Source of the DNA: a virus
Taxonomy: Duplodnaviria > Heunggongvirae > Uroviricota > Caudoviricetes
Virus record (IMG/VR): IMGVR_UViG_2740892423_000027
Length of the DNA stretch: 44,568 nucleotides
Reading direction: 5' to 3' (one strand)
A model generated the notes under the pieces. The model was not told the origin of the DNA, did not search any database, and was given only the letters and a program-made list of their open reading frames with translations. Positions 17,785 to 44,568 of this stretch are shown here, piece by piece. Position 1 is the first letter of the stretch, and each line of letters opens with the position of its first letter. The position numbers and the translations under genes were made by a program.

Positions 17785-17860
17785 TGGTGCTGGTTAACGG
17801 ACTTGAACCGCTACCCATTCGCTTACAAGGCGACTGCTCTACCATTGGAGCTAAACCAGC
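17785..17860 (-). tRNA. tRNA-Thr (anticodon UGU), phage-borne
   Basis: Manual cloverleaf: 7/7 acceptor pairs, 4-bp D stem, anticodon stem with loop CUUGUAA, T-loop UUCAAGU, encoded 3' CCA; folded by hand only. Confidence 0.7.
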
Positions 17861-17865
17861 ATGTT

Positions 17866-17940
17866 TGGCGGGACAGCGTGGACTCGAACCACGATAAGAA
17901 GGTTAACAGCCTTCCGTAATGACCTTTATACGACTGACCC
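17866..17940 (-). tRNA. tRNA-Asn (anticodon GUU), phage-borne
   Basis: Manual cloverleaf: anticodon stem GAAGG/CCUUC with loop CUGUUAA, T arm CGUGG-UUCGAGU-CCACG, encoded CCA; one mismatch each in acceptor and D stems. Confidence 0.55.
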
Positions 17941-33650: not shown

Positions 33651-33851
33651 ATGCAACACGAACTACAGCCTGATTCCCTGGTTGATTTGAAATTCATCAT
33701 GGCCGATACTGGCTTCGGTAAAACCTTCATCTATGACCGGATTAAGTCCGGAGACCTGCCTAAAGCCAAAGTTATCCACGGGCGAGCAAGATGGTTATAT
33801 CGTGACCATTGTGAATTCAAAAATAAGCTCTTAAGCCGCGCCAATGGGTAA
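33651..33851 (+). CDS. Excisionase / AlpA-family small DNA-binding protein (putative Xis)
   Basis: 66 aa; FIMADTGFGKTFIYDRIKSGDLPKAKVIHGRARWLYRDHCEF fits AlpA/Xis-type HTH pattern; directly upstream of integrase. Confidence 0.5.
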   Translation: MQHELQPDSLVDLKFIMADTGFGKTFIYDRIKSGDLPKAKVIHGRARWLYRDHCEFKNKLLSRANG

Positions 33852-33934: not shown

Positions 33935-34050
33935 CACTTTAAAGACCTTTCTCTACATTTCACTTCATTACATAACCACTTAAAAAACAGTAATTTATCA
34001 CCGAATCGGCCTGATTTTCATTTCAGTTAATTTCATGACATTACAACCTC

Positions 34051-35427: not shown

Positions 35428-36309
35428 ATGCAGCATTCAACAGAGAATGAAACTATATTCTTAGGAAATCTATGGATTGACAAAAAAATACCACCATTAG
35501 AATATTGTTCATTTGAACGCGCTTCAAGATTATTAGAATGCGAGATTGATGATTTATTACACCTATACGAAATAGGCGCTTTTAATATCGCATTCAAGGC
35601 GGATGGACTTGCAGTTAGATTTAATGTTAATTTCCTCAATAAAAATCAGAAAATGGAAATTGACTTAATTCATCCCGTATTAACTAATCAATCACTAGAG
35701 ATGGAGTTTTCAACAATATGGTATGACCTTAAAGATGATTCCTTTGAACATTTTGAAAATGGGCTTCAAATTATAGGATTTGCCTGTGGTATTTGGTACG
35801 CCGATGATATGATAAGTGACATAAAAAATGGATTAGCTATAGATCCAGATTATGAATTCAGGCTTAAACCGGTAAAAATACGAGATAATGTTTTGATGGC
35901 AACGGCCTCATATGAAGGAAATAAGGTCATTGATATTCCATTTGAAGATCTTCTTATCATGCGAAGAGATTTAGAGTTAATATGGAAATCAGTAAAAACT
36001 GGAATTCCTATGCCAAGTTTACTTACGAAAAGAATTTCATCTGAACCTAAAATCCCCAAGCGATTAAATAACACTGCTGAGCATCATGCAAAAAATAGGG
36101 AGGGGTTATTAAATGCAGCCATATATATTTTAGCAAAATACCCAAGCGAATGTCGTGGTGAAAGAAAAGAGATAAGTCCTGAAAAGTGGACTAACGCCAT
36201 AATTAAACATTTAGGAGAGCTACCTCCAATATTTATCACTAATGAACAAGAAATCTTAAGAAAATTACGATTAGCGGTTAATCATGCGGGGTTAAAACAA
36301 AAGGGGTAG
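35428..36309 (+). CDS. Hypothetical AT-rich cargo protein (293 aa) between int and alpA
   Basis: Starts 31 nt after int stop, AGAGG upstream; strongly AT-rich; no recognisable motif. Confidence 0.55.
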   Translation: MQHSTENETIFLGNLWIDKKIPPLEYCSFERASRLLECEIDDLLHLYEIGAFNIAFKADGLAVRFNVNFLNKNQKMEIDLIHPVLTNQSLEMEFSTIWYDLKDDSFEHFENGLQIIGFACGIWYADDMISDIKNGLAIDPDYEFRLKPVKIRDNVLMATASYEGNKVIDIPFEDLLIMRRDLELIWKSVKTGIPMPSLLTKRISSEPKIPKRLNNTAEHHAKNREGLLNAAIYILAKYPSECRGERKEISPEKWTNAIIKHLGELPPIFITNEQEILRKLRLAVNHAGLKQKG

Positions 36310-36411
36310 ACTGAAACAATCTACAGGTAGAGTTGATTACACTACCTTCACAGCATTTTGATATCCCCATAGTATCTGCCGTGTTCATTACATAACACGG
36401 CAGGTAATTTC

Positions 36412-36627
36412 ATGACATTAAAAACTTATCCTATCACTGGACATGCCCGCCCACGAGCTACTGCTGACTTTTTGCAAATAAGTACGGTTACTCTCTGGCG
36501 CTGGGAAAAGAACAATCCTGAATTTCCCAAATCTATACGCATTTCAAAACGGGTATCTGTTTACGATGCACAAGAAATTAGGCAGTGGGTTAAAGCTCAA
36601 TCAGCAGGATTGGAGGAAGTAGTGTAA
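36412..36627 (+). CDS. alpA: AlpA-family transcriptional regulator (prophage CP4-57-type)
   Basis: 71 aa; FLQISTVTLWRWEKNNPEFPKSIRISKRVSVYDAQEIRQWV matches AlpA HTH pattern. Confidence 0.8.
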   Translation: MTLKTYPITGHARPRATADFLQISTVTLWRWEKNNPEFPKSIRISKRVSVYDAQEIRQWVKAQSAGLEEVV

Positions 36628-36676
36628 TGACAATATTAACAAAGCTGGGGAGAAAAAAGCCTCCCCAACGTATTAA

Positions 36677-36871
36677 TCAATTCTTTGGTTCTAAACCTCG
36701 GCTTTGTAACTCTTTGCGTAGAATGCGCTTGATCCAAGCCGCTAGCGATTCATCGCCATCCTGCTGTTGTGCTTGTTCCATCAGTTCACGCAGTTCAGGG
36801 TCAAGTCGGAACTGGAATGGCGGATTCCCACGTCTTTCATTTTTGTGTGTTGACACGTCAATTACACCCAT
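36677..36871 (-). CDS. Small ribbon-helix-helix-like DNA-binding protein (putative satellite repressor)
   Basis: 64 aa; PFQFRLDPELRELMEQAQ...ESLAAWIKRILRKEL resembles RHH strand-helix-helix; divergent from rightward operon; weak RBS. Confidence 0.4.
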   Translation of the reverse strand: MGVIDVSTHKNERRGNPPFQFRLDPELRELMEQAQQQDGDESLAAWIKRILRKELQSRGLEPKN

Positions 36872-36904
36872 TGTAATGTATTTATGTGTAATGACACATT
36901 ACAC
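36850..36904 (+). promoter_or_regulatory. Sigma70-like promoter (TTGACA, 18 nt, TAATGT) with adjacent palindrome GTGTAATG-ACA-CATTACAC (operator candidate) for satellite rightward operon
   Basis: -35 TTGACA at 36850-36855, -10-like at 36874-36879; palindrome 36886-36904; a third ATTACAC copy at 36861-36867. Confidence 0.45.
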
Positions 36905-37537
36905 ACAGAAAAACAAAATAGCAACGCCCCGGAGTGTTTGCAGCAGCACCGAGGCGTCTGACCAGCACGTTATATGAGGTAACGAAGATGGCTAAACAGA
37001 AGTGTACCTGGTTATTTGCGGCGATCAACCGCAGTCAACGTAATGCCCGTCCGGTGATGTTAAGGATCATCGCAGATAACGAACGATCAGCGCGGCGCAG
37101 ACTTGCCCCGGACTATGTACTGAGCTTTGCCGGGCGCATTCCCTGCGGAGGTGAACATGCGTAATTATCCGCACCCCGGCGAACGCTGGCAGCATGAACG
37201 TGGCTGGACGGTCACGATTATCCGATTAATAGAAGCCTGGCGCTGGTTAATCCTGAATTCAGCTGTGAAGTGCTGATACGTCATGACAGCGACAACCAGC
37301 TATCCTCCTGCCCTCTGGCATGGTTTGAACAGCGGTATACGCGCCTGTTTGATGTACCGCTCTTTAAGCCTGCACCAGCTCCTGCAGGCGGTAGTGGTTC
37401 CGGCCCGCTGACACTGCATCCGTCTGTGCTATTTATCCGCTGGCGGGAGCGTAGCATATGGCGCTCTGCTGAGCCTGACGACGGTCACTATTCAAAGTTT
37501 CTCTGACAAAATACCGCTGAAAACGGAGTAATCCACG

Positions 37538-37822
37538 ATGAATATTTCAAACGGGCACAACGGTGCTCAGGGCCACACTTTGCCTGAAAAACACAATACC
37601 GGTGCTTTTGCCTATGGGTTGTCAGAGGACAGTTTCGGAAAGCTGACCCGCGCAAGAAATGCCTGCGACATGCTCCAGCTTCTCTTTTCTGAATACCCGT
37701 CTCAGGCCGGAGCACTGGACGCTGGCTGTGCGCATGGTGTCGCCGCGCTGATGGAGTACCTGCTGGCAGATTTGACGGATATTGCACACAGCTGCGCACT
37801 GATTGAAGGAGGTGCCAGATGA
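37538..37822 (+). CDS. Hypothetical protein, first of three translationally coupled genes ending in primase
   Basis: 94-aa ORF; stop overlaps next start (ATGA) at 37819-37822. Confidence 0.45.
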   Translation: MNISNGHNGAQGHTLPEKHNTGAFAYGLSEDSFGKLTRARNACDMLQLLFSEYPSQAGALDAGCAHGVAALMEYLLADLTDIAHSCALIEGGAR

Positions 37823-38202
37823 ACCAGCCGCAGGTTTCCATTTTCCCGGCAGAAATGACCACCGCGCTTTACCGGCGGGCTATTGCTTCAGCATGGCGGC
37901 AGAAAATGCTGAACGAAACTGGCAGTGATCAGTATGGTCCGCACAGCCTGACGGTGGAGCGTATTGAAATGGCCATTGCGCTGCATATCGAGTGCGTACT
38001 GATTAACGAGTACGGCGAAGTGCAGGGCGCCGCTGCCGCGCTGGCACTGCTGACTGACATGCTGGAGCCGTCACTGCTGACCGCGCCGCCGGTACTGACC
38101 GCGCGCGGCTGTGAAGTGATGGCGGAGATGTACCGCACGCTTCCGGCGGCCTTTGATGACTTCTGCAGTACCGGTGTGACGTTGTATGAGGGGGAAGTAT
38201 GA
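37819..38202 (+). CDS. Hypothetical protein upstream of primase (epsilon position)
   Basis: 127-aa ORF; ATGA overlap with both neighbours. Confidence 0.45.
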   Translation: MNQPQVSIFPAEMTTALYRRAIASAWRQKMLNETGSDQYGPHSLTVERIEMAIALHIECVLINEYGEVQGAAAALALLTDMLEPSLLTAPPVLTARGCEVMAEMYRTLPAAFDDFCSTGVTLYEGEV

Positions 38203-40871
38203 CAATACAGACGGTTACGCAGATTTCAGCCGCCGCACGGGGGAAATGGCCCGTTATTCTGCAGATGCTGCGTATTGATGTACCTGAAAACGGCAGGCAC
38301 GGTCCCTGCCCGAAATGTGGGGGCAAGGATCGTTTTCGCCTTGATGACCTTGACGGGCGCGGGACGTGGATCTGCAGCCAGTGTGGCAATGGTGACGGTC
38401 TGGATCTGGTTAAGCTCGTAACCGGTTACAGCGTCAGAAAGGCTGCGCAGGAGGTGGCGCAGGTGCTTAATGTGCCGGATGTGCAGGAACTGCCTGTTAA
38501 GCCTGCCAGACAAAAAGCCCCTAAACGCGACATGGGTCTTACCGTGGCGGCGCTGATGAAAGAGAGCCACACGGGAGAAAGCGCCTATCTGACAGGAAAA
38601 GGGTTCGCCGGATACCCGGCCTCTCTGACCGGAAGCGTGCAGCATATCAGCGGTAAGGATTTTCCTGCCGGTTCCCTGCTGTTACCACTCACGACCAACA
38701 CCGGAGCCGTGACCGGTGCACAGCTTATCGCCCCGACGGGTGAAAAAAGCATACTGCCCGGCAGCACGATGAAAGGCGCGTTTGTGTCGCTCAGCCCGTT
38801 ACCGTCTGAACCACCGGTACAGGTGGTGATTACCGAAGGTTACGCTACGGCGCTGACGGTAAGCCAGCTCACTGCCGGATGCGTAGTGGCTGCCATATCT
38901 GCGGGCAACCTGCCCAATGTGGCGCAGTCGCTGCGGGCACGCTGGCCTGAGGTAAAAATTATCATCGCCGGTGATAACGATTTTCAGGACGGGGGTGAGA
39001 ATCCCGGCAGAGCCTTTGCTGAACGGGCGGCAAAAGCTGTTGGCGGCTGGATGACGCTGCCACCAGGAGAGATTAAGGCTGACTGGAATGACTTTCATCG
39101 GGAGCACGGTATTACCCGTGCCCGTGAAGCCTTTCGCAACGGTCTGGTACTGTGCGGGGAAGGCCGCACGCAACTGCCGCACGGGTTCCGTCTTACCCAG
39201 GAATATCTCTGGTATGAAAAGCAGGTACAGCGCAACGGTGAGACGGAGATCCAGAACGTCAAAATATGCAGCCCGCTGCGCGTGACGGCAATCACCTGCG
39301 ATGCCGATGGCGGTAACTTCGGACGACTGCTGGAATGGGAAGATACGTGGGGTGAGTGTCGCCGCTGGGCGATGCCGATGGAAATGCTGAGCGGCAGTGG
39401 TGAGGAACTGCGCCGGGTACTGCTGGTTAACGGGCTGTCTTATATCAGCACCACCGGTGAGGCACGCGCACGCCTGATGGAATATATCTCACTGTGTAAA
39501 CCGGAACGCCGCGTGACCTGCGTCAGTCGTACTGGCTGGCATGGTCAGGTTTACGTCCTGCAGGATGAGGTCAGCGGTGAAGGTGCAGAGGGTGTCATTC
39601 TCCAGACCACTTCCGTGCAGGGGCGTGATTTCCGCGTGTCGGGCACAACAGAGGAATGGCGGGAGCATGTATCCCGCTACTGTACCGGCAACTCCCGCGT
39701 GGCATTTGCTGTCAGCCTGGCCTTTGCTGCACCACTGTTACGGCTGGTTGGTATGGACGGCGGCGGCTACCACCTCAAAGGGGAATCGACAGACGGTAAG
39801 ACCACCACCATGAAAGCGGCAACCTCCGTCTGCGGCGGGCCTGACTACTGGCAGACATGGCGGGCCACCGGCAACGCGCTGGAGGGATGCGCCAGCCGCC
39901 GCAACGATGCCGCCATGATGCTTGATGAGATCCGGGAAGTTGACGGACGCGAGGCAGGCAATATCGCCTACATGCTGGCAAACGGTCAGGGCAAGGGCCG
40001 TGCCGGTACGGACGGTGAGCTGCGTACCCGTAAGCAGTGGCGCCTGTTGTTCTTTTCAACTGGCGAGTTGTCTCTGACCGAACATGCGGCAAAGGCCGGT
40101 GAGCGTACTTTTGCCGGGATGGAAGTCAGGATGATCCAGATCCCCAGCGATTCCGGGAAGTTTGGCGTTTTTGAGGAGCTGCACGGCTTCGACAGCGGCA
40201 AGGCTCTGGCAGAGCATCTTGAATGGGCCACGTCCTGCTACTACGGTTCGCCGTTCCGGGAGTGGCTGAAAGCACTGACCGCTGATCTTAACGGACTAAC
40301 GGCACAGGCAAAATCGCTGATGAAGGAATATGCTGCCGCCCTGACTCCTAAAGATGCAGGCAATCAGGTGGGCCGGGCTGTGAACCGCTTTGCACTGGTG
40401 GCGATGGCAGGTGAACTGGCAACCCGTCTGGGTATCACCGGCTGGCCTGAGGGTGAAGCACTGCGGGCAACCCGCGTCTGCCTGAACGCATGGCTGAAAG
40501 ATCGCGGGCACACCGCCAATCAGGAAGATATCGCCGCACTGGAGCAGGTTCGCAGTTTCTTTACCGCGAATCAGTACAGCCGCTTTGCAGACTGGTATGA
40601 CGAGCGCAACCGCCCCGGCAATATGGTGGGCTGGCGCAGGGTGGAGAAAGGCAGTACCGCGCAGGGCACGGAAGCTATCACTACGTTCTATGTCATGCCG
40701 TCCGGCTGGAAAGAAATCTGCAGGGGATTTGACCCGCGCAAGGTGGCGCGTCTGTGCGTAGATCGTGGATACCTGCTGCCCTCCACTGATGGCAAACTCC
40801 AGACAACCATTCGCCCGCCAGAGATGAATCCCCGCAGGCTCTATGTCTTCAACAGCGAGGTGCCGGGTTAA
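38199..40871 (+). CDS. Primase-helicase, P4 alpha type (zinc-binding N-term, TOPRIM primase, D5-like helicase)
   Basis: 890 aa; N-terminal CPKCGG...CSQCGNGDG zinc ribbon; TOPRIM-like ITEGYATAL...IIAGDND; C-terminal P-loop region HLKGESTDGKTT. Confidence 0.85.
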   Translation: MTIQTVTQISAAARGKWPVILQMLRIDVPENGRHGPCPKCGGKDRFRLDDLDGRGTWICSQCGNGDGLDLVKLVTGYSVRKAAQEVAQVLNVPDVQELPVKPARQKAPKRDMGLTVAALMKESHTGESAYLTGKGFAGYPASLTGSVQHISGKDFPAGSLLLPLTTNTGAVTGAQLIAPTGEKSILPGSTMKGAFVSLSPLPSEPPVQVVITEGYATALTVSQLTAGCVVAAISAGNLPNVAQSLRARWPEVKIIIAGDNDFQDGGENPGRAFAERAAKAVGGWMTLPPGEIKADWNDFHREHGITRAREAFRNGLVLCGEGRTQLPHGFRLTQEYLWYEKQVQRNGETEIQNVKICSPLRVTAITCDADGGNFGRLLEWEDTWGECRRWAMPMEMLSGSGEELRRVLLVNGLSYISTTGEARARLMEYISLCKPERRVTCVSRTGWHGQVYVLQDEVSGEGAEGVILQTTSVQGRDFRVSGTTEEWREHVSRYCTGNSRVAFAVSLAFAAPLLRLVGMDGGGYHLKGESTDGKTTTMKAATSVCGGPDYWQTWRATGNALEGCASRRNDAAMMLDEIREVDGREAGNIAYMLANGQGKGRAGTDGELRTRKQWRLLFFSTGELSLTEHAAKAGERTFAGMEVRMIQIPSDSGKFGVFEELHGFDSGKALAEHLEWATSCYYGSPFREWLKALTADLNGLTAQAKSLMKEYAAALTPKDAGNQVGRAVNRFALVAMAGELATRLGITGWPEGEALRATRVCLNAWLKDRGHTANQEDIAALEQVRSFFTANQYSRFADWYDERNRPGNMVGWRRVEKGSTAQGTEAITTFYVMPSGWKEICRGFDPRKVARLCVDRGYLLPSTDGKLQTTIRPPEMNPRRLYVFNSEVPG

Positions 40872-43104: not shown

Positions 43105-44568
43105 CTACCCATGACATTTTTTGAATTTTTTTCCTGATCCACAATAGCAAGGCTCATTTCTTCCCATTTTTTTTTCATTATTAACTATAGGGAATGTAGA
43201 CATATATGATGTCGGCTTAGGCAAGATGTCTGTAAGAACGCTATACTCCTTCATGGATTTTTTCGCTAATAAGCGCTCATCCTTTGTAAGTGGCTCATCA
43301 AACTTACAATAAACAACATCTTCAGAACGGCCCTCAGAATCTTTGCTTTCCGTTGCAATAATTATCAACTTCTTAATTTGACTGTATTTATACTTCGCCA
43401 CTAGTGCATACATTTGCACACAAGAAAAACGCTCCAATCTATATTTTTCATATGATAACCCTTCATCACGCGGAAAGAACAAAAAAATATAATATTTGCC
43501 TTTTTCGTCAATCGACTCAACAATCCTAGAACTTCTTCTATTAGTAGGAACCTGTTTGAACTTTTCTATAAATGCCTTAGAAAGATGATATCTTGACACT
43601 CTGCTTTCTGCTGCCAGTTGTCTAACTGTTTCCTCATGACTATGAAAGTCATTTTCTATACCCAAACCTACAGTTGCAGTAAGAATTGATTCCGAAAGTC
43701 TCTGTATCATTTCATCCCAAAACACACTTCCTTTTTTCATTGCCTTGTAATAATCATACTGAGGAGATTTTTTTAACACTTCCCACTCATTTTCTGCTAT
43801 TTGCACAAATGTATTTTCAGGTACCAATTTCTCATCTACAATCACTCCATGCCCGCTCAAATATGCAGCCAAAGTATCATCTTCTCCTGGACTTAATCTC
43901 AGAAGGCCAGAACGGACAACACGTTCCTTCTCTTTCAAGTAACTAACAAAGTCAGTAATTGTATCTAACTCCGACAATAAGAGATTTAATGACAATTCAT
44001 CTAACACATGAACAAATGTTTTATTTGGATAAATATCTCCAATGGAAAAAGGTTGCTCCATACTTTCCTTTATTCCAAATGAGAAAACATTCATGAGAGT
44101 ACCAGAACTCCCTTCAGCTATACGTGAAAAGAAATTAGATGCAGGAACCGAACTATTATTGGTTACAGCGATAAGGAAAAACCTCATATCTCTATTTATT
44201 TTAACTGGAAAGGGAACTTTGCATTTTTTATCTAAGAACAATCGTCCATGATGATCTTTTAAAAACTTCTCTGCCCCATGTAACTGAACAGCCGATTCAG
44301 TTATGGATTTTTTAAACCATCTTTTCCATGCTACAGAAACTTCAATCTCTTCGTTAAAGTTAATATCCTTATCTGAAAATAAAATCACATTATTTTCAAA
44401 AACAACTAATAAATCACACACCTCCTTCCCCGATTTGTTTTTAGAAAGCCCTTCATCACTATACACATTAGGATATGACCATAAACCAATAAACGCACTA
44501 TTAGCCAGTTCTATTAATCTTTTTTCAGTTTGATTAACTCCCTGCCCTTTGTTAATCACTTTTAACAT
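43105..44568 (-). CDS. AT-rich cargo protein with C-terminal SEC-C zinc-binding motif (487 aa; defence candidate); start coincides with last base of window so N-terminus may be longer
   Basis: C-terminus ends [14 protein letters not shown] (SEC-C motif); strongly AT-rich, antisense to satellite late operon; N-terminal region has a D..E..DK-like pattern ([17 protein letters not shown]) that could be nuclease-like but is unverified. Confidence 0.6.

Follow-up and report, generated by a model that had tools for sequence, protein, structure and literature searches.

Here, we analysed a short control region in the IMG/VR virus record IMGVR_UViG_2740892423_000027 (Caudoviricetes), a stretch of 44,568 nucleotides that we refer to throughout as the window. 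The region lies between alpA and a rightward operon that opens with a gene for a protein resembling the Icd division inhibitor and closes with a primase gene, and it holds a small minus-strand gene for a ribbon-helix-helix (RHH) protein, predicted promoters, two inverted repeats and a predicted antisense RNA (Table 1). An initial annotation, made from the sequence alone, had viewed the locus as a candidate satellite immunity switch, composed of alpA, an RHH-like gene and a divergent promoter with a palindromic operator. The elements that it listed, namely, alpA, a 64-aa minus-strand open reading frame (ORF), the TTGACA-18-TAATGT promoter, a perfect palindrome and a third ATTACAC copy, were all recovered in place.

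Table 1. Features of the control region and of the adjoining genes, in window coordinates
Feature	Coordinates	Strand	Description
alpA	36412-36627	+	71 aa; gene of the AlpA/Vis helix-turn-helix family; Pfam Phage_AlpA, E 1.6e-7; PHROG excisionase/regulator families
Intrinsic terminator of the RHH gene	36669-36644	-	Terminator scan: 10-pair stem, then TTTGTT; begins 8 nt past the RHH stop codon
RHH gene	36677-36856	-	59 aa from GTG 36856; open to ATG 36871, giving the 64-aa form (36677-36871), RefSeq WP_000538173.1
Predicted rightward promoter P_R	36850-36879	+	-35 TTGACA 36850-36855, 18-nt spacer, -10 TAATGT 36874-36879; predicted start ~36886; from sequence and conservation
Inverted repeat O2 (putative operator)	36860-36879		AATTACAC-ccat-TGTAATGT; in the spacer and -10 of P_R
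Inverted repeat O1 (putative operator)	36886-36904		GTGTAATG (36886-36893), ACA, CATTACAC (36897-36904); spans +1 to +19 of P_R and the -10 of P_rhh
Predicted RHH-gene promoter P_rhh	36896-36924	-	-35 TTGCTA 36924..36919, 17-nt spacer, -10 TAATGT 36901..36896; predicted start ~36889
Minus-strand intrinsic terminator	36910-36958	-	Hairpin 36958..36923, U-rich tail 36922..36910; RNAalifold and pair counts
Predicted antisense RNA, ~80 nt	36912-36994	-	Complementary to the 5' untranslated region (UTR), Shine-Dalgarno sequence and AUG of the Icd-like gene; predicted ends
Anti-Shine-Dalgarno stem-loop	36968-36984	-	Loop CCUC facing GAGG in the icd-like mRNA; 11 sequences show G-C to A-U double changes
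Icd-like gene, first of the rightward operon	36988-37164	+	58 aa; NCBIfam phage_ICD_like, 83 bits; RefSeq annotation
Predicted antisense promoter P_as	37001-37028	-	-10 TACACT 37006..37001; possible -35 TTGATC 37028..37023, 16-nt spacer; inside Icd-like codons 5-7
Rest of the rightward operon	37157-40871	+	119-aa gene (frameshifted in the window), 94-aa gene, DUF5375 gene (P4 ORF106 homologue), TOPRIM/DUF927 primase; ORFs tightly packed or overlapping; annotated after the PM4 island

The RHH gene, its predicted facing promoters and their repeats

The minus-strand ORF is a real gene under strong constraint and its product is modelled as an RHH fold, so that the RHH-like candidate of the initial annotation is borne out. 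Relatives of the protein in the databases number 102 (58-100% identity) and come from Escherichia, Klebsiella, Pantoea, Serratia, Yersinia, Xenorhabdus, Proteus/Providencia, Edwardsiella and Frischella/Gilliamella; a 15-kb record labelled 'Pasteurella phage Pmp8' encodes a 56% identical version. Across 42 genomic copies, mean nonsynonymous divergence (pN) is 0.096 against a mean synonymous divergence (pS) of 0.85 (pN/pS 0.11), and between the window gene and that of locus L004 the two values are 0.01 and 0.80, which points to strong purifying selection. The AlphaFold2 model has a strand (residues 19-22) and two helices (25-38 and 43-57), with a mean pLDDT of 76.5 and of 84-90 in the core, i.e., the N-terminal beta-strand followed by two helices of the RHH superfamily (Arc/MetJ/CopG), and PHROG 228, 'Arc-like repressor', matches the protein with an E-value of 8.9e-6. 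Most homologues are 59 aa long and start with MSTHK, and the same codon is GTG 36856 in the window, which is preceded 8 nt upstream by a Shine-Dalgarno-like GGGTG motif, overlaps the TTGACA hexamer of P_R and is a more likely start than ATG 36871. The N-terminal extensions of some database entries (64-71 aa) arise because the conserved, putative operator DNA is open in frame in some lineages only.

Past helix 2, the protein has ~7 residues and thus almost no C-terminal extension. This feature bears on the possibility that the RHH protein is an antitoxin, neutralising an Icd-like toxin by contact and binding DNA only for autoregulation. We consider this highly unlikely, given that the two genes are divergent and not co-transcribed, that neither co-transcription nor a toxin-binding C-terminal extension, the hallmarks of type II toxin-antitoxin modules, is found, that the same RHH gene and control region stand beside first genes that are not Icd-like, including Xenorhabdus, where the first gene after the control region is the primase itself, and that PADLOC gave no match for either protein.

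For comparison, we fetched 45 genomic loci encoding relatives of the RHH protein. Only three of these (L002, L003 and L007) have sid, psu or delta; the remaining loci have different primases, integrases and first genes, and AlpA/excisionase-like or Bro-N genes are found downstream of the RHH gene in loci other than the window. What is kept, at near-constant length, is the RHH gene, ~130 bp of non-coding DNA and the first ~13 codons of the first gene on the opposite strand. Given this distribution, and the same layout in the phage-inducible chromosomal island (PICI) EcCICFT073, the module is not specific to P4. Parts of the 171-bp control region are present in 516 of 5426 complete E. coli genomes, and the E. 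coli collection has it at 33 places on plasmids (e.g., NZ_CP138394.1, 39968-40110). Some of the E. coli matches cover the RHH/operator half alone (query positions 1-68) and others the hairpin/leader half alone (100-171), so that the two halves appear to recombine at ~36907-36940.

The conservation of the promoters was counted in an alignment of 37 loci (A2), in which the non-coding control positions are conserved while the synonymous sites of the neighbouring gene are saturated. P_R keeps TTGACA in 34 of the 37 loci, the 18-nt spacer in 32 and a TAnnGT -10 in 34; TTGACA is also retained in loci whose RHH gene starts 4 codons further downstream, and its conservation thus cannot be put down to coding alone. 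Thus, of the 'near-consensus' promoter of the initial annotation, the -35 stands and the promoter itself is backed by conservation, whereas the -10 agrees with TATAAT at 3 of 6 positions and a consensus promoter scan did not list P_R. In P_rhh, the TTG at 36924..36922 is invariant, the 17-nt spacer is retained in 35 of 37 loci with free spacer sequence, and the -10 is TAATGT in 31. Rather than standing back-to-back, as in the simple divergent arrangement first proposed, P_R and P_rhh are predicted to face each other, with starts, placed from the positions of the hexamers, ~3 nt apart and polymerase sites that would overlap almost fully.

The repeats lie within these promoters. The third ATTACAC copy (36861-36867) forms the second inverted repeat together with a fourth half-site, TGTAATGT at 36872-36879, which overlaps the P_R -10. 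Chance is an unlikely source of the repeats: 0.11 copies of TGTAATGNNNCATTACA with up to 2 mismatches are expected in the window and a perfect copy is present at O1, and GTGTAATG occurs 5 times against 1.17 expected, with 3 of the 5 copies within 36622-36904. The main-type consensus is GTnAT-N5-ATTAC for O1 and ATTACAC-N4-TGTAATG for O2. The O1 palindrome is perfect (8/8) in 3 of 37 loci and usually scores 5-7/8; its arms vary without compensatory changes, which favours a protein site and led us to reject the palindrome as an RNA stem. The centres of the half-sites are 10-12 bp apart (36863/36875 and 36890/36900), a spacing that would fit RHH dimers reading sites about one helical turn apart. 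Across loci, the ~160-bp control region usually holds 3-6 copies of the motif (range 0-6) versus 0-2 per 3.5 kb elsewhere, and the repeats are unchanged in loci where alpA, int, the primase or the first gene differ or are absent.

The repeats do change with the RHH allele, four other RHH variants or alleles in this position being accompanied by different ones. In EcCICFT073, with SQALKARVP in the strand region of its RHH protein, there are two copies of GTGGGCCACACCT, one within the spacer of a TTGACG-17-TATAGT promoter and one directly behind its -10; the upstream paralogue of loci L027 and L036 (NKQIALRVEP) is accompanied by GTAAGACAA-N11-TTGTCTTAC, and the RHH proteins of L045 and L046 (SAPFQLRLE) by TTGTCAT...ATGACAA plus a GTAC-centred palindrome. 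This joint change is the best available evidence that the RHH proteins may bind at the control region. Between individual residues of the beta-strand and the operator, there was no usable covariation, the contact residues (P, Q and R by analogy with Arc) being the same in the divergent L040 and L044-46 proteins. The two Citrobacter loci L027 (5778-5951 and 6010-6177) and L036 (likewise) have tandem RHH genes. The upstream gene (45% identity) comes with a palindrome of its own and adjoins the RNA/leader half; the window-type gene comes second, with only a partial operator.

Alternatively, the ATTACA-type repeats might be sites for AlpA (or Int), with AlpA activating P_R and the RHH protein having some other role. 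Indeed, AlpA is treated as the regulator in EcCICFT073, where it activates island genes and its own promoter (PMC6092414), P_R looks weak alone, and in the window CATTACA/ATTACAC also occurs upstream of alpA (36336 and 36386), at the alpA stop codon (36622) and upstream of int (33966 and 34039). In nearly all sampled loci, however, the motif clusters within the control region and is at background level elsewhere; it is also retained in loci that have an unrelated alpA, or Bro-N genes in its place, and it follows the RHH allele, and we give AlpA binding little credence; nor did we find evidence that places alpA, a component of the initially annotated switch, inside the switch itself. The copy that overlaps the alpA stop codon, GTGTAATGACA at 36622-36632, equals the left arm and centre of the palindrome; this copy and the ATTACAC at 36336 occur in the window lineage only and not in most related loci.

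A predicted antisense RNA across the start of the first gene

Between O1 and the start codon of the Icd-like gene lies the hairpin of a minus-strand terminator, continued in the minus sense by GCTATTTTGTTTT. Of its 13 pairs, 10 show changes on both sides, and 96.5% of cells are paired; the whole RNA structure, as assessed with RNAalifold and a pair counter in 31 sequences, comprises 22 pairs, with 96.8% of cells paired and 13 double-change pairs, compared with 3-5 in slid controls, and the observed values were reached in 0 of 500 shuffles. Several features assign the structure to the minus sense. Internal U-G pairs, seen in 11 and 7 sequences, can form in minus-sense RNA only, the hairpin is stabler in this sense in 30 of 31 loci (-21.1 vs -16.8 kcal/mol, a mean gain of 4.3 kcal/mol), and a T-rich tail follows in this sense only (7.1 T vs 2.2 T per 12 nt). 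Upstream, the T, A and last T of the TAnnnT -10 of P_as are kept in 36 of 37 loci despite the differing codons that they fall in (KCT, QST, NSN, QHT, YDS and others) in unrelated first genes, and EcCICFT073 has an extended -10, TGGTATGAT, at the same position. With P_as lying ~7 nt ahead of the start-codon complement, and with the terminator, an antisense RNA of ~80 nt is predicted.

A covariance model of the element (R1) recovers it in the window at 36915-37007 on the minus strand (81 bits) and in three places outside its training set, namely, EcCICFT073 (64 bits, E 1e-14) and L027/L036 (85 bits), all on the RHH strand and beside other RHH alleles; R1 has no match in P4. No Rfam family corresponds to the element, either in the whole window at gathering score or in 36250-37250 at E-values up to 10; a traJ_5 match (21 bits against a gathering score of 50) was taken as chance. 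Thus, from comparative evidence, a conserved antisense RNA over the ribosome-binding site of the first gene is probable.

The same hairpins could, in principle, act in the sense icd-like mRNA, as a stabiliser or translational element of its 5'-UTR, with no antisense RNA at all and with the palindrome as the 5' stem-loop of the P_R transcript. The sense leader does fold, the palindrome giving a 5' stem and a mirror hairpin holding the Shine-Dalgarno GAGG in its loop, and has a z-score of -2.86 (36886-36995). Yet the internal U-G pairs become A-C mismatches in the sense strand, the sense fold is the weaker one and lacks a T-tail, the arms of the palindrome vary without compensation, and the invariant minus-strand TAnnnT would be left unexplained. 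We therefore regard a purely sense-strand role as quite improbable.

A closer rival retains the minus-strand signals and dispenses with P_rhh. There would be a single leftward transcript, with P_as as the true RHH promoter, the hairpin and U-tail as an attenuator in its leader, RHH synthesis by read-through, and an antisense overlap that acts in cis. P_as and the terminator are the best-supported RNA signals of the region, and the conservation of P_rhh could have other causes, given that its -35 TTG abuts the terminator stem and its -10 is inside O1. Against this, the G of the TTG is invariant though outside the stem, and the constant 17-nt spacing of TTG and TAATGT around free spacer sequence is as expected of a promoter. 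A single transcript thus seems to us rather unlikely, and we favour two leftward promoters, P_rhh for the RHH gene and P_as for a separate antisense RNA.

A candidate three-part switch

On balance, we favour the view that 36644-37028 is a three-part control cassette for the early/replication operon, from the Icd-like gene through the primase, made up of an RHH protein, head-on promoters and an antisense RNA. We infer from sequence that the protein binds DNA, which way the regulation goes, where the transcripts end and what might act as inducer. The 59-aa RHH protein, produced from P_rhh, would bind the GTAAT/ATTAC repeats of O1 and O2. In the OFF state, RHH protein on O2 and O1 would shut P_R and limit its own synthesis from P_rhh, and, because the two promoters face each other with starts ~3 nt apart, only one polymerase could be accommodated at a time, which would make for a sharp switch. 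Any transcript that leaks from P_R would meet a second layer, the antisense RNA from P_as, which would base-pair over its Shine-Dalgarno sequence and AUG and block synthesis of the potentially toxic Icd-like division inhibitor. Given that Icd of phage P1 blocks cell division by targeting FtsZ (PMC11897509), leakage of the Icd-like protein would be costly; and because of an 8-nt overlap between the Icd-like stop codon and the next ORF, translational coupling may carry the silencing downstream. Candidate routes of induction are AlpA, itself induced by a helper, or a helper protein that inactivates the RHH protein. Once ON, transcription from P_R would run through P_rhh and P_as, reducing what each produces and locking the switch ON, so that it could be bistable.

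Several observations weigh against this scheme. The poor -10 and 18-nt spacer of P_R suggest that it may need an activator, and the RHH protein could act otherwise than as a simple repressor. Its family assignment is faint by sequence: the Pfam scan returned no family, the NCBIfam model YlcI_YnfO_N (NF041551) scores 20.7 bits, under its cut-off of 30 (despite which RefSeq labels some copies 'YlcI/YnfO family protein'), and a sequence-profile search of the PDB gave chance matches only, with no solved relative. The main-type protein is 75-98% identical across genera, atypical of immunity repressors, which diversify, and such uniformity of both protein and sites is unusual for an immunity determinant. 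Loci L002-L046 were gathered with the RHH protein as the query, so that the conservation of the neighbouring DNA is partly conditioned on that choice, the independent cases being EcCICFT073 and the upstream paralogue of L027. Folded as a single sequence, the RNA has a z-score of only -1.74, a modest value that makes the case for an antisense RNA a comparative one. Finally, the 'terminator' could be an attenuator in a long RHH leader starting at P_as, in which case there would be neither a separate P_rhh nor a free small RNA.

More tentatively, Gram-negative PICI-type satellites and their P4-like relations may have in this cassette the master switch that they have seemed to lack: head-on promoters under an RHH repressor whose operators are allele-specific, joined to a new, widespread family of antisense RNAs that silence the first early gene, with helpers inducing the satellite by defeating this pair directly or via AlpA. 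In Gram-negative PICIs, the identity of the global repressor has been stated to be unclear (PMC6092414), and a switch of this kind, if real, would explain why no Stl-like repressor has been found in PICI-type or P4-like satellites of Gram-negative bacteria. These satellites are common and move defence and virulence genes between bacteria, and the cassette offers a concrete candidate for their OFF state, with a counterpart that has a different RHH allele in the model island EcCICFT073. The RNA element, absent from Rfam, is a candidate new RNA family, and satellites could fall into groups of regulatory specificity according to the interchangeable RHH/operator alleles that stand beside a common RNA/leader half.

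The satellite island and known control systems

The cassette belongs to an island that extends from ~33925 to the window end with 99.9% identity to the tRNA-Arg island of E. coli PM4, in which the position corresponding to 33925 is within the 3' end of the tRNA-Arg gene. The island has, in this order, the genes for an integrase and a 293-aa protein, alpA, the small minus-strand gene, the Icd-like gene, three small genes including that for DUF5375, the TOPRIM/DUF927 primase gene, sid-like and psu genes (two Psu-family genes) and an Ogr/Delta gene. Thus, int, alpA/vis, an alpha-type primase gene, sid, psu and delta occur together, with the Psu family (twice), Ogr_Delta, Phage_AlpA and DUF5375 detected by Pfam and the integrase and primase known from annotation, and the island is a P4-like satellite by gene content and a Gram-negative PICI by gene order. 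Indeed, its int-alpA-...-primase-sid-psu-delta order differs from that of P4. The alpA gene, named 'helix-turn-helix' or 'AlpA family transcriptional regulator' in RefSeq, adjoins the cassette and is convergent with the RHH gene. In the second gene of the rightward operon (PHROG 30862), 10 bp of the PM4 island (TCGCCCTCTG) are missing from the window at 37237/37238, and the 119-aa frame is therefore split by a frameshift into ORFs of 49 and 78 aa.

Upstream of alpA, a perfect inverted repeat with 10-bp arms (CTGCCGTGTT-CATTACAT-AACACGGCAG, 36373-36400) lies 11 nt ahead of the start codon. Because it also reaches into the -10 of TTCACA-17-TAGTAT (36347-36375), which resembles a promoter, its role could be that of an operator; alternatively, it could be a terminator that shields alpA from upstream transcription. 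A RybB-like Rfam match (21.5 bits) at this hairpin was taken as chance, probably reflecting the hairpin only. The 13-mer TTCATTACATAAC (33966-33978 and 36384-36396) and the 15-mer AATTTCATGACATTA (34031-34045 and 36406-36420, including an ATG) are each found upstream of both int and alpA, and both hold an ATTACA or ACATTA core resembling the RHH half-site; their sharing suggests common regulation of the two genes or a partial duplication of the alpA 5' region.

To the left of 33925 lies a different phage-like element, which has an AlpA-like gene of its own (33651-33851) and, on the minus strand, two tRNA genes (17785-17940; Thr and Asn), so that the satellite appears to be integrated in tandem with another element. 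At the other end, directly after delta, a minus-strand gene (43105-44568) encodes a 'YecA family' protein of 487 aa whose C terminus has a metal-binding motif of the SEC-C type. Defence genes are often found at this position in P4-like satellites. A PADLOC scan of the RHH, Icd-like, 293-aa and YecA-like proteins gave nothing relevant, the match of the YecA-like protein being confined to its last ~25 residues.

Among the known control systems that invite comparison, Stl of the Staphylococcus aureus pathogenicity islands and Rpr of Gram-positive PICIs are, like the RHH protein, encoded opposite to the excision-replication operon of the satellite (PMC6092414). They differ in being larger helix-turn-helix proteins that lack a partner antisense RNA and whose repression is lifted when they bind a helper protein.

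By position, the cassette replaces the C4/isrK immunity region of P4, where the order is vis, cI region, epsilon, ORF151, ORF106 (DUF5375) and alpha: here, too, a control region stands between vis/alpA and the DUF5375 and primase genes. No epsilon was detected among the window ORFs scanned. Neither C4 (RF01695) nor isrK (RF01394) was found in the whole window at gathering score or in 36250-37250 at E-values up to 10, whereas the same Rfam search on P4 returned its CI RNA as C4 (74.9 bits) and seqA as isrK (60.8 bits); conversely, the RHH protein has no tblastn match in P4. The expectation that a protein takes the place of a P4-type RNA is thus half right: the P4 RNAs are gone from their usual position, but a conserved antisense-RNA element is also present. 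By analogy, the two systems would share an RNA component and the task of silencing the replication operon of the integrated satellite. In P4, the immunity RNA is processed out of the sense transcript and brings about premature termination (PMC10111431), in contrast to the separately transcribed antisense RNA and the protein regulator predicted here.

In the immI regions of P1 and P7 (c4 RNA, icd, ant), translation of a tightly controlled operon likewise begins with a division inhibitor of the Icd family, and its ribosome-binding site is blocked by an RNA, as predicted here; that icd belongs to the P1 immI operon is stated in the title of a reference cited in PMC11897509. The c4 RNA, however, is sense, co-transcribed and a member of Rfam C4, a family absent here; an RHH gene is lacking in P1, and ant in our operon.

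The layout of EcCICFT073 is identical to that of the window island, comprising int, alpA, a minus-strand YlcI/YnfO RHH gene, an Icd-like gene, small ORFs and a primase gene. The RHH allele is a different one, scoring 67.4 bits with NF041551 versus 20.7 for the window protein, the repeats are of the GTGGGCCACACCT type, and the late genes are capsid genes rather than sid, psu and delta. With hhalign, the RHH family and the EcCICFT073 protein align with a non-significant probability of 0.3%, which leaves homology between the RHH alleles unproven. In the CFT073 genome (L048; NC_004431.1, 1380242-1381052), the RHH gene, an adjoining 57-aa minus-strand gene and the Icd-like gene bear the late locus tags C_RS30800, C_RS30120 and C_RS30125; these genes were thus seemingly added on re-annotation and may have been overlooked in published genetics. 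As for AlpA, a Pseudomonas aeruginosa protein of that name acts as an antiterminator (PMC7969949). In the literature searched, we found no functional study of YlcI/YnfO, of an Icd-like gene with an RHH gene, or of a PICI with an RHH/CopG/Arc-like cassette, and the cassette is apparently an uncharacterised variant of known switches that combine an RHH protein with an antisense RNA.

The best-known switch of this kind is immI of phage P22, with symmetric operators over overlapping promoters and a short antisense RNA that starts in or next to the regulated gene and runs over its ribosome-binding site. As with Mnt and Arc of P22, a small gene for a putative RHH repressor is read away from the operon that it would regulate. 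Membership of the P22 system by sequence was not observed, in that the window has no Arc or Mnt match in Pfam and no sar-type match in Rfam, which should include the sar family. The layout is nevertheless there, as judged from sequence and conservation, with an RHH gene opposite the regulated operon and symmetric sites over the promoters, and an antisense RNA with its own promoter and terminator over the ribosome-binding site is predicted from a strong comparative signal. In P22, two protein repressors and an antisense RNA control ant (PMC2629481). The differences are that the phage has two RHH genes and the satellite one, and that the antirepressor gene ant is regulated in P22, whereas here it would be an Icd-like gene (or other genes in other loci) followed by the replication genes. 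By analogy, then, P22 immI appears to be the closest known system in logic, with a phage in one case and a satellite in the other.

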